Below, piece after piece: positions 608 through 41,364 of a DNA stretch of 44,566 nt (position 1 is the first letter of the stretch; each line of letters begins with the position of its first letter). Source of the DNA: Candidatus Staskawiczbacteria bacterium (lineage in GTDB: Bacteria > Patescibacteriota > Minisyncoccia > Minisyncoccales > Staskawiczbacteraceae); assembly GCA_049513595.1 (NCBI GenBank), contig JBEKVX010000003.1, positions 1-44,566 of the forward strand, read 5' to 3'. The notes beneath the pieces are model-generated. The model was not told the origin of the DNA, made no database searches, and was given only the letters and a program-made list of their open reading frames with translations. The position numbers were made by a program, and so were the translations under genes.

Positions 608-2419
608 TTAGTTTTGAGCTGATTCTAATTCTTTTTTTGCCTTTCTGTTTTGTAAAACCTCTTGAGGATTGGTTGTTATTATTTGGTTTTCTGTCTGGCT
701 GGCAACAACTGACAAATAAACGTGTTTTCTTCCAGCAAAAAATAATCCTTCTCCAACCGATGCCTCAACTAAGAGATATTTTTCCTGCTCTGTTAAGTTA
801 AAAATTTTTTGCACTGAGTCAATGTCAGCAGTTGATTGTTTCATTAAAAGTTGCAGAGATGAGTTTGTGATAATCGCCTTGCCATAATCGGACTTCGTAA
901 AATCAGCCACATCCTGGGTAATAGTTGTCACTCCCAGCCAATATTTTCTGCCTCTTTTTACCAAGCCGAAAAGAAAAGAAGCGCCGTCATCTGTTTGCAT
1001 CAGCCACCAGGCCTCATCAATAACCAAAATTCTTTTTTTTAGTTTTGACCTGACCATGTTCCATATATATCTCATAATAATGTACAGGGCGATGGGCCTT
1101 AACGAATCCTCCATATCCCTTATTCCAAAAACAACAAAATTTTTATCTATGGAAATATTTGATTGCTGGTTGAAAAAATCAGCAAAAGTTCCTTTGGTAA
1201 ATTTTTTCATGCGATTTACCAGCGACTCGGTTCCTGTCATGCTTTCTAAAACCTCCTGGAAGTCAGACATCAAAGGAGTGTTGTTTGCCCAGGTTTTTGG
1301 GTCCGACTGCGGAGTAATATCTCTTACGGCATATGTCTCCGTAAGCGCTTCGTCTAAAATGCTGTCTTCCTCTGGCGTTAATCCGCCCAGCATAATTCTT
1401 AAAAGTCCGACCAAATTTATAACATTGGACCTTAAAACATCTTCTGGATTGTCGCCTTCGCCCGGCAGCGGCAAATCAAAGGGATTGACATGGTTTGCAG
1501 AAGTTAAAGAAATTTTAAAAAATGCACCACCCACAGAGTCAGATAAAATTTCATATTCATTTTCCGGGTCAATGATAATTATATCAACTCCCTGCATTAG
1601 ATATCTCAATATTTCTAATTTTATGGCATATGATTTTCCTGCGCCTGCTTTTGCAAAGACCACCATGTTGGCGTTTTCCAAACTGAATCTATCAAACAAA
1701 ACCAAAGAATTATTGTGCCTGTTTATGCCGTATAAAATTCCTTCGTTGGAACTCAAATCAAAAGAAATAAACGGGAAACAAGTTGACAGGGGGGCTGTGT
1801 CCATTGGCGTGTGAACCTCTATTAAATCCATGCCATACGGGCTGCAGGAAATAAATCCTTCTTTTTGTTTGAATAAAGCGGCCTTTATATAAATTAATCG
1901 CGATTCAAAAATTGACCTTAGCGTTAACTCCGTGTCCCGCAGCCCTTTTTCAGATGTTTCATAAACCGTGATATAAACGCCCAGACGGAACATTTTTTCC
2001 TGAGCAGTCATCAAATTATCTCTCAGGGTTTCGATATCTTTGTATGCGGTTTCAAGAGCCGGGTCGCGAATCAGCCCTTTTTCTTCTCTTTCCAAAATTT
2101 CTGACGAGACCTCTGTAATTTTTTTTCTTAATTTTTTTAAAATTAATTCCGAACTGACAGGATGTATAAAAAACGAAATATCCATCGGCGTGCTTAAATC
2201 AATGACAGGCGAAAACCAGCCGGTGTTTAAATACCTTGGATAAGAAAAAACAAAAAACGACTTGGCAAATCTCTCTCCCAATTTTATGTGGTCTTGCGTA
2301 ACTCCAATATATGGCGGAGCAATAATGTCTTTTACGTCAAAGGCCTCTTCCTGAAAAATTTTATCTTCTGCCAAATTTTCCTGTTTTTTTCCAAAAAGGT
2401 TATTTAAAAATGAAGCCAT
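608..2419 (-). CDS. virB4: VirB4/TraC-like type IV secretion ATPase
   Basis: Walker A AKAGAGKS, IIIDPENEY, NPFD, Walker B ILVIDEAW, and GRKY..TTITQ motifs. Confidence 0.9.
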   Translation of the reverse strand: MASFLNNLFGKKQENLAEDKIFQEEAFDVKDIIAPPYIGVTQDHIKLGERFAKSFFVFSYPRYLNTGWFSPVIDLSTPMDISFFIHPVSSELILKKLRKKITEVSSEILEREEKGLIRDPALETAYKDIETLRDNLMTAQEKMFRLGVYITVYETSEKGLRDTELTLRSIFESRLIYIKAALFKQKEGFISCSPYGMDLIEVHTPMDTAPLSTCFPFISFDLSSNEGILYGINRHNNSLVLFDRFSLENANMVVFAKAGAGKSYAIKLEILRYLMQGVDIIIIDPENEYEILSDSVGGAFFKISLTSANHVNPFDLPLPGEGDNPEDVLRSNVINLVGLLRIMLGGLTPEEDSILDEALTETYAVRDITPQSDPKTWANNTPLMSDFQEVLESMTGTESLVNRMKKFTKGTFADFFNQQSNISIDKNFVVFGIRDMEDSLRPIALYIIMRYIWNMVRSKLKKRILVIDEAWWLMQTDDGASFLFGLVKRGRKYWLGVTTITQDVADFTKSDYGKAIITNSSLQLLMKQSTADIDSVQKIFNLTEQEKYLLVEASVGEGLFFAGRKHVYLSVVASQTENQIITTNPQEVLQNRKAKKELESAQN

Positions 2420-17195: not shown

Positions 17196-17465
17196 CTATT
17201 TTCTTAACCCAATTTTTTTAATAATGGACGAATATCTTTTCTCAGATATTTTTTTCAAATAGGTCAAAAGTTTTTTTCTTTTTATGACCATTGTTATCAA
17301 TCCCTTTTTTGAATGTACATCCTGAGGATGCTTTTTCAAATGCAAAACCAGCTTGTCAATTTCTTTTGATAGCAAAGCAATCTGAACCTCCGAAGAGCCG
17401 GTGTCTTTTTCGTCATTTCCAACTTCCTTTATAATTTTTGTTTTTTCTTTTGTGGTTAAAGCCAT
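17196..17465 (-). CDS. rpsO: 30S ribosomal protein S15
   Basis: DTGSSEVQIALL, HLKKH..D.HS..GL..MV.KR. Confidence 0.97.
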   Translation of the reverse strand: MALTTKEKTKIIKEVGNDEKDTGSSEVQIALLSKEIDKLVLHLKKHPQDVHSKKGLITMVIKRKKLLTYLKKISEKRYSSIIKKIGLRK

Positions 17466-17512
17466 ATGCGCGAATTTTTAATTTAAAATTTTTAATTTTT
17501 AATAATATTGAT

Positions 17513-17541
17513 AGTATACTCTATTTTTTTAATTTTGACAA
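17513..17541 (-). promoter_or_regulatory. Sigma70 promoter of rpsO operon
   Basis: Minus strand TTGTCA, 17-nt spacer, TATACT. Confidence 0.6.
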
Positions 17542-17542
17542 G

Positions 17543-17615
17543 TGCCCCCGTTGGGACTCGAACCCAAAACCAATTCGTTAAGAGCGAACTGCTCTACCAG
17601 TTGAGCTACGGAGGC
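17543..17615 (-). tRNA. tRNA-Lys(CTT)
   Basis: GCCTCCG/CGGGGGC acceptor stem, anticodon loop CTCTTAA, T-loop TTCGAGT. Confidence 0.93.
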
Positions 17616-17620
17616 AATAT

Positions 17621-18343
17621 TTAAATATTAATTGCTCGCGAAACTTCCGTTAATTTATGCCATTCTTTCTGCGTTATTACAACCTCGGAATTTACCTCTT
17701 TCATAATTTCTTTTATCCAGCCAAAAATTTTATATCTTGCGTCAGTCCCTTTTGGGACTCTCACACTTATTGTTCCGTAATATAAATTATTTTTTTTATA
17801 ATTTTTATTTAATGGCTTAATAAAACTTTTGCCAAACCTTTCTATGGGAATGTTTGTTAGTTGCGACCAAAACTGTTTTATTTCTAAATCGTTTTGTTGA
17901 GGATAAATATTCAGCCAAGCTTTTAAATCTTTCGGCGCGATACCAAATATTTTTTCAAACCACCTAACCATAAATAAAATAAGATGAGGGTCAGAGTTTG
18001 TAATATTTAAGCCATTAGTTTTGCTTCCCTCTGCCCAATACAATGCCGCCCCCAAAATTTTATAGGTTTCTGCTGCAACAGGATTGTGGATTTCTTTTCC
18101 CGCTTCTTCTAATATTTTATCTATTTCCCTTTTTCTTCTTTCCTTTTGACTTTGCGCTCCTCTTGCCAAAATTGTTATGTTGTTAGTATAGAGCCGTTTT
18201 CTTTGCTCTTCTGTTAATAACACTTCCTTTAACCAATAACTTAACGTGCTTTTTGAAATGCTTAGTTTTTTTGCAATTTCTCCATAACTAAGCCCGTTTT
18301 TTCTAAGCTTTATTGCTTTTGTTTTTGAAAGATTATTTTTCAT
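17621..18343 (-). CDS. N-terminal HTH + single LAGLIDADG-like domain protein
   Basis: HTH (AIKLRKNGLSYGEIAKKLSISKSTLSYWL). GAALYWAEGS resembles the LAGLIDADG helix and is followed by ITNSDP, FW and YGT motifs. Confidence 0.65.
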   Translation of the reverse strand: MKNNLSKTKAIKLRKNGLSYGEIAKKLSISKSTLSYWLKEVLLTEEQRKRLYTNNITILARGAQSQKERRKREIDKILEEAGKEIHNPVAAETYKILGAALYWAEGSKTNGLNITNSDPHLILFMVRWFEKIFGIAPKDLKAWLNIYPQQNDLEIKQFWSQLTNIPIERFGKSFIKPLNKNYKKNNLYYGTISVRVPKGTDARYKIFGWIKEIMKEVNSEVVITQKEWHKLTEVSRAINI

Positions 18344-18387
18344 ACTTCCATTATATCACACAGGGGAGCCGAACTACAAGATGTTTG

Positions 18388-18403
18388 ATTGAGCTATGAG
18401 GGC
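18388..18403 (-). pseudogene. tRNA 5' fragment (acceptor 5' strand + D-stem)
   Basis: GCCCTCATAGCTCAAT is 12/16 identical to the first 16 nt of the downstream tRNA-Lys (GCCTCCGTAGCTCAAC). Both are preceded by TT. Confidence 0.65.
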
Positions 18404-18422
18404 AAGCAAATTTTTATTATTG

Positions 18423-18821
18423 CTAAAGCGACCACCAACTGCCTAAGCTATATCCAAGAAGCGTCACTAAAATAAAATTAATTATCAACCACGAACAAAA
18501 AACTAAAACCAATCCGATAATTGCAGCATAAAAAATCTTTTTGCCAGTGCCCATTAAACCCGGGTTGCCAGCTGAGACAATCATAAAAACTGCTCCTACC
18601 GTGAGTGCGATAACCGCTAAAGGCGTTGCTATATCAAATACAATAAATTGGTAAATATTTACAAGCAGTGTAAAAAAATCATTGATTGTGCATTGTCCTG
18701 TGCAATTTCCATTTTCGTCGCAGGTGGGATTGCACGGCACAATGTCGGCTTTCACTAAAAGCGGAATAAAAATCATTGATAACAAACAAAAAAGGACGAT
18801 TGATAAAAATATTTTTTTCAT
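18423..18821 (-). CDS. CPR pilin-like protein (TrbC/VirB2-like)
   Basis: Signal peptide, Cys-rich loop (IVPC...QCTINDF), then 'LAVIAL..GA...SAGNP...GKK....AIIGL..V..SWLIIN'. Confidence 0.75.
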   Translation of the reverse strand: MKKIFLSIVLFCLLSMIFIPLLVKADIVPCNPTCDENGNCTGQCTINDFFTLLVNIYQFIVFDIATPLAVIALTVGAVFMIVSAGNPGLMGTGKKIFYAAIIGLVLVFCSWLIINFILVTLLGYSLGSWWSL

Positions 18822-18828
18822 TATTTTC

Positions 18829-18903
18829 TGGTGCCCTCGGCAGGACTCGAACCCGCAACAACTGGTTCGAAGCCAGTTATGATATCCATTTCACCACGAG
18901 GGC
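18829..18903 (-). tRNA. tRNA-Arg(TCG)
   Basis: GCCCTCG/CGAGGGC stem, ACTGG-CTTCGAA-CCAGT anticodon arm, encoded CCA. Confidence 0.93.
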
Positions 18904-18977
18904 ACGAAATTAATAATTGTCTTATTTTACCTAAAAAATTGAAAAAAAGCAACTTTTAGGATAGAATAGAAAAAATC

Positions 18978-20438
18978 ATGACAATTCCGAAGGAAGTTAA
19001 AAATATAATTGGAAGATTGGAAGGCGCGGGATTTGAGGCATATATTTGCGGCGGATGCGTTCGCGATTTTTTGTTGCAAATCGAGCCAAAGGACTGGGAT
19101 GTCACAACCAACGCCAAGCCAGAAGAAATCCAGAAAGTTTTTCCAGATAGTTTTTATGAAAATAATTTTTTGACGGTTACCGCGCGCACTGGCTCAAAAA
19201 AACCGGAATCGGCGGAAGTTGAAATCACAACTTTTCGTCTTGAAGCAAAATATTCTGATAAACGGCATCCGGATGAAGTAAAATATGCAAAAAAATTGGA
19301 AGACGATTTAAGCCGCAGGGATTTTACCATAAACGCAATGGCAATGGATGAAAAAAAGAAAGTGATTGATTTATTTGGTGGGCAAAATGACTTAAAAAAT
19401 AAAATAATCAGGACCGTTGGAAATCCAGAAGAAAGATTTAATGAAGATGCTTTGAGAATGTTGAGAGCTGTTCGTCTTGCCACAACTTTGGGTTTTAAGA
19501 TTGAAAAAGAGACCGCGGATGCAATCAAAAAAAATTGTCGGGGTACCCCCTGGGTCGTGGATGCAATTTCAAAGGAAAGAATCAGAGATGAGTTTGTGAA
19601 AATAATTATGGCCGATAAAGCAGCTGATGGAGTTGAATTATTGCGTGAATTAAATTTGTTGAAATATATTGTTCCAGAATTATTGGAAAATTATGGCGTG
19701 GCGCAAAACAAACATCATATTTATGACTGCTACCAGCATGCAATAAAGTCATTGGAATATACTGCAAAGAAAAAATTTAATATGCATGTTCGCCTGGCTG
19801 CTTTACTCCACGATGTCGGAAAACCAAGGGCAAAAGCCGGCGAGGGAGAAAATGCAACTTTTTACAATCACGAAATTGTGGGTGCAAAAATTACTTTTCA
19901 GATTTTAAATAATTTAAAATTTTCAAAAAAAGATGTTGAAAAAATTACAAAATTGGTAAGGTTTCACCTCTTCTATTATAATGTTGACGAAGTCGGAGAA
20001 TCATCTGTGAGACGTCTGGTAAAAAATGTAGGACTAGAAAATATGGAAGAACTTTTACAGGTGAGAATGGCGGACAGAATTGGCTCTGGAGTTCCAAAAG
20101 CCGAACCATATAAATTGCGCCACTTAAAATATCTGATTGAAAAGGTTTCCAAAGACCCGATTTCTGCAAAAATGTTAAAAATCAACGGAAATGATTTAAT
20201 GGAAATTTTGAATGAAAAACCAGGTCCGAAAATTGGCCAGATTTTAGATATTCTTTTAGGTTATGTTTTAGATGACCCGAAAAAAAATGACAAAAAGTTT
20301 TTGGAAAAAGAAGTTGCAAAACTAGGAAGATTATCGGAAAAAGAATTAAAAAATATGGCAGAAAAATCAAAAGAAGATAAATCAGAAATTGTATCTAAAG
20401 AAGACAAAATGACCAAAGCAAAATATTGGGTCACGTAA
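18978..20438 (+). CDS. cca: CCA tRNA nucleotidyltransferase with HD domain
   Basis: GGCVRD, DWDVTT, RRDFTINA, EDALRMLRA, ERIRDE, LLHDVGK. Confidence 0.93.
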   Translation: MTIPKEVKNIIGRLEGAGFEAYICGGCVRDFLLQIEPKDWDVTTNAKPEEIQKVFPDSFYENNFLTVTARTGSKKPESAEVEITTFRLEAKYSDKRHPDEVKYAKKLEDDLSRRDFTINAMAMDEKKKVIDLFGGQNDLKNKIIRTVGNPEERFNEDALRMLRAVRLATTLGFKIEKETADAIKKNCRGTPWVVDAISKERIRDEFVKIIMADKAADGVELLRELNLLKYIVPELLENYGVAQNKHHIYDCYQHAIKSLEYTAKKKFNMHVRLAALLHDVGKPRAKAGEGENATFYNHEIVGAKITFQILNNLKFSKKDVEKITKLVRFHLFYYNVDEVGESSVRRLVKNVGLENMEELLQVRMADRIGSGVPKAEPYKLRHLKYLIEKVSKDPISAKMLKINGNDLMEILNEKPGPKIGQILDILLGYVLDDPKKNDKKFLEKEVAKLGRLSEKELKNMAEKSKEDKSEIVSKEDKMTKAKYWVT

Positions 20439-25682: not shown

Positions 25683-26060
25683 ATGGGTACAAGAGAATTG
25701 GGAAAAAAGGGAGAAGATTTGGCTTGTGAATATCTTGTGAAGAACGGGTATAAAATATTGGGGAGAAATTGTGTTTACAGCATAGGGGAAATTGATATTA
25801 TCGCGAGGAAAAGATGGGGATTATTTGTTAATAAAACAATTCATTTTGTTGAGGTAAAAAGTTTGAGCTACAAAGGCGATTTTTTTCCAGAGGAAAAAGT
25901 TGATTATAAAAAACAAAATAAATATAAACGTTTGGCGGAAATTTGGCTGGAAAAAAATGAGTTTCCACAAAATTATCCGTGCCAGGTGGACATAATCGCA
26001 GTTTCAATGGATAATGGAGAAAATAAAATTAAACATTTCGAAAATATTATTAGCAATTAA
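25683..26060 (+). CDS. yraN: YraN family (UPF0102) endonuclease-like protein
   Basis: G..GEDLA..YL...GYKIL.RN....GEIDIIA...FVEVK. Confidence 0.88.
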   Translation: MGTRELGKKGEDLACEYLVKNGYKILGRNCVYSIGEIDIIARKRWGLFVNKTIHFVEVKSLSYKGDFFPEEKVDYKKQNKYKRLAEIWLEKNEFPQNYPCQVDIIAVSMDNGENKIKHFENIISN

Positions 26061-41181: not shown

Positions 41182-41211
41182 AGTGGCAATGTTTTAACAT
41201 TTTTATTATAG

Positions 41212-41282
41212 AGCGGGTAAGGGGAGTCGAACCCCTCTCATTAGCTTGGAAAGCTAAGGTAATACCGATATACGATACCCGC
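41212..41282 (-). tRNA. tRNA-Gly(TCC)
   Basis: GCGGGTA/TACCCGC stem, TTAGC-TTTCCAA-GCTAA anticodon arm. Confidence 0.93.
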
Positions 41283-41293
41283 ATTAATTTATG

Positions 41294-41364
41294 TCGGGGA
41301 GCCGAGATTCGCACTCGGGATAAACGCTCCCAAAGCGTTCGTGTTACTGCTACACCACTCCCCG
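41294..41364 (-). tRNA. tRNA-Pro(TGG)
   Basis: CGGGGAG/CTCCCCG stem, AACGC-TTTGGGA-GCGTT anticodon arm, variant T-loop TGCGAAT. Confidence 0.9.

Follow-up and report, generated by a model that had tools for sequence, protein, structure and literature searches.

The stretch of DNA analysed here, called the window throughout, comprises the 44,566 nucleotides (nt) at positions 1 to 44,566 of contig JBEKVX010000003.1 from a Candidatus Staskawiczbacteria bacterium, and the element under study is a 240-amino-acid (aa) open reading frame (ORF) that stands directly in front of an intact tRNA-Lys(CTT) gene and is considered here as a putative homing endonuclease gene. The locus is described on the minus strand, and the coordinates of its features are collected in Table 1. 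The pilin-like gene upstream is the left anchor of a gene order conserved in the genus, tRNA-Arg(TCG) - pilin-like gene - tRNA-Lys - rpsO, and downstream of tRNA-Lys(CTT) there is a good consensus promoter followed by rpsO. Between the pilin-like gene and the ORF lies a short segment, here called the stub, that corresponds to the first 16 nt of a tRNA and covers the acceptor strand, U8-A9, the D-stem and the start of the D-loop. An earlier note, prepared from the letters of the window alone, had proposed the layout of stub, 44-nt spacer, 240-aa ORF, 5 nt and tRNA-Lys, and every one of these elements was found to be present.

Table 1 Features of the tRNA-Lys(CTT) locus, in the order in which they are read on the minus strand
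Feature	Window position	Strand	Details
tRNA-Arg(TCG)	18903..18829	(-)	upstream end of synteny block
Pilin-like 132-aa membrane protein (T4SS_pilin-like)	18821..18423	(-)	Pfam PF18895, E 1e-7
19-nt spacer between pilin-like stop codon and stub		(-)	
16-nt tRNA 5' stub GCCCTCATAGCTCAAT	18403..18388	(-)	TT before it
44-nt spacer	18387..18344	(-)	contains GTAGTTCGGCTCCCC
-35-like TTGTAG	18379..18374	(-)	18-nt gap to -10
Extended -10, TGn + TATAAT	18358..18350	(-)	TATAAT 18355..18350
GGAAG	18349..18345	(-)	within the 44-nt spacer
240-aa ORF, helix-turn-helix + LAGLIDADG-like putative homing endonuclease	18343..17621	(-)	
N-terminal helix-turn-helix, residues 7-40	18325..18224	(-)	Pfam
LAGLIDADG-like domain, residues about 88-225	18082..17669	(-)	family profiles versus I-DmoI
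L-Y-W-A-E-G motif, residues 101-106	18043..18026	(-)	
5-nt gap, ORF stop codon to tRNA position 1	17620..17616	(-)	
Intact tRNA-Lys(CTT)	17615..17542	(-)	ARAGORN; Rfam tRNA, 69 bits

The stub and the start of the intact tRNA form an imperfect direct repeat, which the note had counted correctly as 14/18 and which a repeat search of the window also lists (17 nt, 82%, spacing 788). The ORF has its own start codon, stop codon and promoter-like box and lies outside any intron or intein. The two tRNAs are the only Rfam matches above threshold in 17300-19000, and the note's statement that integrase, intron and intein are missing agrees with our searches of the same interval (Rfam up to E 10; Pfam on the neighbours), which returned no signal of any of the three. 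No recombinase was found among the neighbour genes and no terminal inverted repeats of the insertion sequence type were detected. The genome to which the window belongs (G000; genomes and loci are cited below by G and L numbers) holds a single copy of the 240-aa gene. The 10 sequencing runs listed for this stretch are DNA from peat or wetland, with no RNA run among them.

A LAGLIDADG-like protein family tied to tRNA genes

Pfam and NCBIfam searches of the 240-aa protein detected an N-terminal helix-turn-helix (HTH) at residues 7-40 and nothing else, with HTH_23 (E 4.6e-6) and HTH_28 (E 1.2e-5) both above cut-offs. For comparison with solved structures, profiles were built from an alignment of 65 family members (A1), 50 of which carry HTH_23, and from an alignment of 48 C-terminal domains taken from many subfamilies (A2). 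The A1 profile matched I-DmoI at E 0.003-0.006. The nine top matches of the A2 profile were all I-DmoI (best E 1.2e-4) and the next match, at 0.17, was unrelated; among nuclease structures, I-DmoI is the only one that the family profiles match. The aligned stretch of I-DmoI comprises its second LAGLIDADG motif together with the following strand and helix, so that LYWAEG of the window protein lies opposite LYVAEG of I-DmoI; E105 is paired with the motif's acidic residue, which we take to be the catalytic E117. Residues Y102, E105, G106, N116, W159 and G190 are invariant in both alignments (65/65 in A1 and 48/48 in A2), and W103 is nearly invariant among the 65 sequences of A1. When A2 was compared by hhalign with an ad hoc alignment of 19 LAGLIDADG_3 domains from the same phylum, the same helix was aligned (P 0.0013).

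Three results speak against this assignment. The hhalign probability between A2 and LAGLIDADG_3 is low (18.6%), the window protein has no match to a Pfam LAGLIDADG model even at E up to 1, and none occurs among the 25 most-matched Pfam families of the 65 members. Other searches were silent: phmmer with the single window protein against the Protein Data Bank sequences gave no match, PHROGs and PADLOC returned matches to the HTH alone, and the ESM Atlas contained HTH-labelled unnamed clusters only. We nevertheless call the C-terminal domain LAGLIDADG-like because of the profile matches to the I-DmoI motif, the invariant E105 and G106 and the helix aligned by hhalign, and at this level the note's description of a free-standing HTH plus LAGLIDADG-like gene is supported. 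With one such domain per chain, the protein presumably works as a homodimer. Of 25 loci holding canonical LAGLIDADG_3 genes of the same phylum, the A2 domain profile detects only 1. The one detected, a 226-aa ORF in L149 (G183; 1390-2070, plus strand), passes the Pfam LAGLIDADG_3 cut-off (26.1 bits), is found by the family domain profile at 17.6 bits, and is a possible bridge between this family and canonical LAGLIDADG_3.

The family is large. Relatives of the 240-aa protein numbered 1573 at E<=1e-3 in a library of 90% clusters and 3896 representative clusters in a 50% library, and the named sources of homologs were bacteria of the Parcubacteria type within the candidate phyla radiation (CPR). 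Members were present in 20 of the 41 relatives' genomes. A phylum-wide sample of 401 genomes gave 93 with a match, with up to 7 matches in one genome by alignment search, 9 by domain profile, and none in many. A tblastn search of cultured phage records gave no match to the 240-aa protein.

The earlier note had suggested that homologs be examined for enrichment next to tRNA genes, and such enrichment is pronounced. Counting an ORF as tRNA-associated when a co-oriented tRNA starts within 60 nt of its stop codon, we obtained 22/30 at the loci of relatives (23 after one frame was re-read), 32/38 at phylum-wide and named-genome loci, and 16/19 for the copies in three multi-copy genomes, where every copy sat at a different tRNA; among ORFs of at least 100 aa in the genome of the window, the background is 17/719 (2.4%). 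For distant subfamilies, with the limit widened to 100 nt, the count was 9/15. The distance from stop codon to tRNA in homologs is mostly between -15 and +15 and often -10 or -15. At -10, the stop codon of the ORF is the TAG at tRNA positions 8-10. Loci L005, L015-L018, L022 and L125-L133, among others, have their stop in the TAG at tRNA positions 8-10 or 13-15, and the C-terminal peptides of several family proteins in the databases are translated D-arm sequence.

The phylogeny of the protein follows the identity of the neighbouring tRNA. On a maximum-likelihood protein tree of 79 rows, four pairs of which are the same genome seen twice, the downstream tRNA changes label 22 times, compared with a mean of 47.9 for shuffled labels and with 0/200 shuffles as low. 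One clade (SH-aLRT 98) holds 27 of the 28 Lys rows as Lys(CTT), a Gln(TTG) clade holds 6/6, and Met, Val, Gly, Ile, Arg and Phe have clades as well; with all sets taken together, the downstream neighbours comprise at least 22 tRNA species. Each protein clade of this large Patescibacteria family is dedicated to one tRNA gene. A second site in the window can be viewed in this light. At 41211-41364, tRNA-Pro(TGG) and tRNA-Gly(TCC) are 10 nt apart, and the same pair of tRNA genes has a family paralog between them in L009 and L010; the window therefore shows that site empty. In L023 a paralog precedes tRNA-Gly(TCC), with tRNA-Arg(TCT) as the upstream neighbour.

The stub and the occupation of the tRNA-Lys site in the genus

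Considered within the window by itself, the stub is weak. A match with up to 3 mismatches is expected 0.27 times per window, and one or more turned up in 25 of 100 shuffled sequences; aligned locally with the tRNA of the window itself, the stub reaches a score of 9 (p about 0.06, 300 shuffles), and a genome-wide scan returned nine unrelated prefix matches with a score of at least 13. Such figures would suit an account by chance, in which the 16-mer merely resembles a tRNA 5' end and the gene precedes a tRNA by accident. The relatives contradict that account. The stub is identical in 16/16 positions to the start of the working tRNA-Lys(CTT) at the empty site of the same-genus genome G012 (L071) and to a stub in G002 (L059), compared with only 12/16 for the tRNA of the window itself, and its position 19 nt after the pilin-like stop codon is where the tRNA starts at empty sites (5-22 nt). 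We accept the stub as real because of the G012 match, the ancestral tRNA position and the recurrence of stubs in many other genomes, and these points, together with the adjacency of the whole family to tRNA genes against a background of a few percent, render coincidence extremely improbable. The stub is best identified as the leftover 5' end of a former resident tRNA-Lys(CTT) gene. A further candidate, at window positions 25863-25877 (minus strand), agrees with the start of tRNA-Lys(TTT) in 14/15 positions and lies antisense inside a 125-aa coding ORF; it was taken as chance.

Stubs on the far flank, which the earlier note had proposed to look for in homologs, occur at 12 of 23 non-redundant gene-bearing Lys sites and, independently, at a tRNA-Met site (L092, tRNA-Met subfamily; 19 nt). 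The latter indicates that stub formation was not a single ancestral accident. Stub lengths range from 12 to at least 28 nt, with one gapless alignment of 38 nt that reaches the end of the anticodon loop, and the end points are concentrated at position 16/17, around 21 and from 27 to 38. The D-loop is consequently not established as the point of entry that the note had proposed. Every stub retains the 5' part of the tRNA only. Perfect matches to working alleles of other genomes were obtained for the stubs of L033 and L052 (21/21 each) and L078 (28/28), the last being identical to the tRNA in use in L036 and L038, members of the same clade. In one clade of eight tree rows, which represent seven distinct loci because L040 and L077 come from one genome, a separate promoter is missing and the stub runs almost to the start codon in six of the seven; L043 is without a stub.

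Within the genus, rpsO is found in all 26 genomes and the order pilin-like gene - tRNA-Lys - rpsO is readable in 23. Only the window and G015 carry the gene at the tRNA-Lys site, and the other 21 sites supply the empty alleles that the note had hoped to find in relatives: at 15 of them 5-22 nt separate the pilin-like stop codon from the tRNA, and at the remaining six the spacer measures 53-313 nt. Traces of other events are evident at several gene-free sites. In G007 (L053) and G002 (L059), a perfect palindromic hairpin of about 49 nt is inserted exactly after position 16 of a 16-nt stub, further tRNA D-arm sequence resumes behind it, and the tRNA-Lys that follows in G002 is a different allele; the hairpin could be a small mobile hairpin or a terminator. 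G021 (L050) has a tandem pair of 16-nt tRNA-Lys stubs, with an identical trio of bases after each copy, which suggests two successive invasions, and in G013 a stub lies inside the 22-nt spacer. In G024 (L052), a 21-nt stub is followed by an intact 80-aa GIY-YIG gene (PF01541, E 2.3e-16; 1929-2168 on the minus strand of the locus), whose stop codon falls at tRNA positions 8-10, and by a divergent tRNA-Lys allele. The stubs, the GIY-YIG gene and the tandem stubs together indicate repeated invasion of the site, by nuclease genes of at least two kinds. Elsewhere in the genome of the window, the gene for a 156-aa HNH endonuclease (C9:13522-13992, minus strand) ends 4 nt before tRNA-Leu(TAA) and a gene of the 23S_rRNA_IVP family (C1:9598-9966, plus strand) ends 29 nt before tRNA-Lys(TTT), so tRNA 5' ends also accommodate other small genes that may be selfish.

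The gene-free sites raise the question of whether stub and gene arrived together. The earlier note had itself named a stub left by an independently deleted tRNA, in lineages lacking the ORF, as an outcome that would tell against it; stubs are found at 5 of the 21 gene-free genus sites, and also at the gene-bearing ones counted above. The stub of the window may therefore predate the gene, as the scar of an earlier tRNA-Lys replacement (for example by a GIY-YIG cassette) or of a decayed tandem tRNA, with the gene arriving later. This order of events would agree with the identical 16-nt stub of G002, which has the same end point and stands before a hairpin and another tRNA allele with no LAGLIDADG-like gene, with the GIY-YIG gene behind the stub of G024 and with the tandem stubs of G021, and the G002 stub in particular argues that the window stub may stem from an older event. 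In the opposite direction, stubs accompany about half of the gene-bearing Lys sites in distant hosts, a stub abuts the start codon in nearly all loci of the clade described above, an independent stub exists at a tRNA-Met site of the same family, and the exclusive retention of the 5' part in every stub would not be predicted from random decay of tandem copies. We consider an older stub unlikely, if far from negligible; it touches the order of events alone and is compatible with the gene being a homing endonuclease.

The tRNA alleles provide a further view of the same events. The tRNA-Lys of the window is closest to the tRNAs at the loci of close homologs (72/74 for L034 and 67/74 for L033), compared with at most 65/74 for genus alleles at gene-free sites. 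At several loci the present tRNA differs from the stub type along its whole length, both acceptor strands included. Since both acceptor strands have changed, the whole tRNA allele would have been exchanged and not the 5' end alone, and it seems that an entire allele came in. The note's proposal that the gene had been restored with a variant 5' end is not supported in that form, given the differences that extend to the 3' acceptor strand. We had also considered whether the diversity of tRNA-Lys alleles was exceptional, and dropped the point, since tRNA-Lys alleles are at most 88% identical and the control tRNA-His ranges over 75-96%.

Expression of the cassette and the case for a selfish gene

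The 44-nt spacer appears to hold the cassette's own promoter. The block TTGYAGTTCG...TGTGATATAAT also occurs upstream of homologs in L002, L032-L035, L039, L042, L045 and L075; the window promoter is unlisted in the consensus scan, its -35 matching at only 3/6 positions. The T-arm-like GTTCG..TCC within the promoter could be an operator that mimics the target, which we offer as a lead only. The consensus scan found no promoter between the ORF and tRNA-Lys, and co-transcription with release by RNase P is therefore the simplest reading, so that tRNA-Lys(CTT) is probably transcribed together with the ORF and freed by RNase P. Paralog subfamilies show a hairpin around the -10 box, with the 3' arm ending right at the start codon. 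Such a layout resembles that of the T4 homing endonuclease genes I-TevI, segB and mobE, for which a ribosome binding site hidden in read-through transcripts and a promoter inside the hairpin are described (PMC2988022). Of the upstream segments, 18/73 fold with z below -2. At six loci of the tRNA-Met subfamily (alignment A4: L006, L012, L015, L021, L022, L096) a 10-bp helix has 96.7% of cells paired and compensatory changes in 5 of 10 pairs, which none of 500 shuffles reached in this small sample of related sequences. The window's own upstream region gave no significant fold, and RNAalifold found no consensus on 14 mixed upstream regions, whose arms are out of register in the MAFFT alignment.

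Conserved sequence overlapping the promoter and hairpins upstream of family members might equally be expected of a regulator, as might the type of the HTH. The protein could accordingly be a domesticated DNA-binding protein, a WhiA-like fusion of an HTH and a LAGLIDADG-derived domain that attaches to tRNA genes, regulates their transcription or processing and is not mobile now. Selection on the gene would be in keeping with such a role: in 10 of 11 pairs (the computable ones) the ratio of nonsynonymous to synonymous substitution rates (dN/dS) is 0.05-0.17, at saturated dS of 1.2-3.0, and loci whose hosts share only 58-63% identity in ribosomal protein S15 have proteins that are 62-70% identical. 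Domesticated LAGLIDADG proteins of the WhiA type have lost the catalytic acidic residues and are kept as one conserved copy per genome across a lineage. The present family differs in both respects. Its distribution is patchy and multi-copy, with the gene in 2 of 23 comparable genus loci and in fewer than a quarter of the phylum's sampled genomes and with copy numbers from none to 9, and the acidic residue of the motif is invariant in both alignments. In addition, 13 of 39 matches in relatives carry in-frame stops, and unrelated nuclease genes occupy equivalent spots: the tRNA-Lys site of G024 holds a GIY-YIG gene, and an HNH gene precedes tRNA-Leu in the genome of the window. A domesticated regulator is, in our judgement, improbable.

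The case for a selfish gene draws on the patchy multi-copy spread, the in-frame stops, the target-specific clades, the host-independent identity and the other nucleases at equivalent positions. Protein identity does not follow host distance, for the same-genus G015 protein (S15 74% identical) is only 63% identical to that of the window, within the range seen in the distant hosts. Several observations weigh on the other side. A gene that benefits its host could show the same dN/dS values and, in distant hosts, the same conservation in excess of S15; purifying selection does not decide the matter, since continued homing between lineages would also maintain the gene. The tRNA alleles and protein lineages are not strictly linked and have been reshuffled elsewhere, as illustrated by L035, whose tRNA is close to that of G015, yet the two proteins fall in different clades. 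The control tRNA-His is also diverse in the genus. The finding that 16 of 17 stubs fit another genome's working allele better than the tRNA of the same locus compares a best-of-44 pick and is biased upward, and the stubs without the gene, that of G002 above all, belong here as well. Taking both sides together, we consider that the 240-aa gene is probably a free-standing selfish gene of the homing endonuclease type, with an HTH and a LAGLIDADG-like domain, placed flush at the 5' end of tRNA-Lys(CTT). Nuclease activity, cut site and homing itself are all inferred from the sequence, and the best reading is of a cassette that carries a tRNA allele along with it and ousts the resident allele.

On this homing endonuclease reading, the course of events might be as follows. 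A homodimeric enzyme would introduce a break into the 5' half of a naive tRNA-Lys(CTT) gene; the stem-loop-coding parts of a tRNA gene are natural near-palindromes. Repair from a cassette-bearing copy would then install the cassette's own promoter, the endonuclease gene and the linked tRNA-Lys allele. The resident tRNA would be displaced, only its first 12-28 nt surviving upstream of the cassette as the stub. At the left end, the junction would either have been joined without homology or have used the stub of the donor as the left homology arm. The host would keep a working tRNA, transcribed behind the ORF and released by RNase P.

Known systems and significance

The closest known system is, by analogy, intronless homing by free-standing phage endonucleases, and the nearest example is SegB of phage T4. 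SegB is a free-standing GIY-YIG homing endonuclease encoded in the T4 tRNA gene cluster, and the conserved T-psi-C motif of a tRNA gene forms part of its target (PMC2330249). SegB and the window gene are alike in being free-standing nuclease genes between or before tRNA genes that are present or absent among relatives, and SegB is inherited together with neighbouring tRNA genes, as the window cassette may be (PMC2330249). The differences are considerable: SegB is a GIY-YIG enzyme of a phage and the window gene a LAGLIDADG-like gene in a Patescibacteria chromosome; the family here has thousands of members, with one clade per tRNA species; its genes are flush with the tRNA 5' end, often have their stop codon inside the tRNA and leave 5' stubs; and, unlike SegB, it is known from sequence alone.

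Within the CPR itself, LAGLIDADG genes have been described in rRNA insertion sequences, where they lie within intervening sequences (PMC11270868). These genes share with the window gene the phylum, the broad enzyme class and the targeting of conserved RNA genes, and differ in sitting inside the rRNA genes; the terms 'tRNA', 'free-standing' and 'helix-turn-helix' are absent from the text of that paper (PMC11270868). Literature searches, with supplementary files outside their reach, yielded no description of tRNA-flanking LAGLIDADG-type genes in the CPR.

Among the LAGLIDADG enzymes, I-DmoI (1b24, 2vs7 and others) resembles the window protein in the motif helix with its acidic residue and in the conserved strand and helix that follow. 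I-CreI and like enzymes are homodimeric and have a single motif per chain, and the window protein likewise has one motif per chain. Unlike I-DmoI and I-CreI, the window gene is outside any intron or intein, has an extra N-terminal HTH and has diverged beyond the reach of the Pfam LAGLIDADG models. Integrase-based genomic islands and prophages with tRNA genes as integration sites duplicate the 3' end of the tRNA and need a tyrosine or serine recombinase. The window element shares with them the tRNA landing site, the gene restored by the element's own copy and a partial tRNA duplicate at the far end. It is set apart by duplication of the 5' end, by the lack of any recombinase found or of terminal inverted repeats, and by its size of under 1 kb.

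A wider proposal, which we advance tentatively and hold to be possible rather than probable, is that of a phylum-wide guild of tRNA-gene-specific homing endonucleases that are intron-free and, together with GIY-YIG and HNH genes, replace tRNA alleles, with the stub as a possible left homology arm. Under this proposal every cassette would supply a tRNA allele of its own, the displaced gene would be reduced to a 5' stub, and the replacement of tRNA alleles in these reduced genomes would be recurrent. If the stub does serve as homology arm, a cassette could home into any genome, whatever lies upstream. Were the enzymes active, they would form a large natural collection of site-specific nucleases, every one with a single tRNA gene as its target. 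The preferred account, if true, describes a selfish gene that occupies an essential RNA gene without self-splicing, by replacing the gene and leaving a stub. It would explain many of the unannotated 'HTH hypothetical proteins' of the CPR and the ORF calls that run into tRNA genes, and it would provide a handle on gene flow among uncultured ultra-small bacteria.

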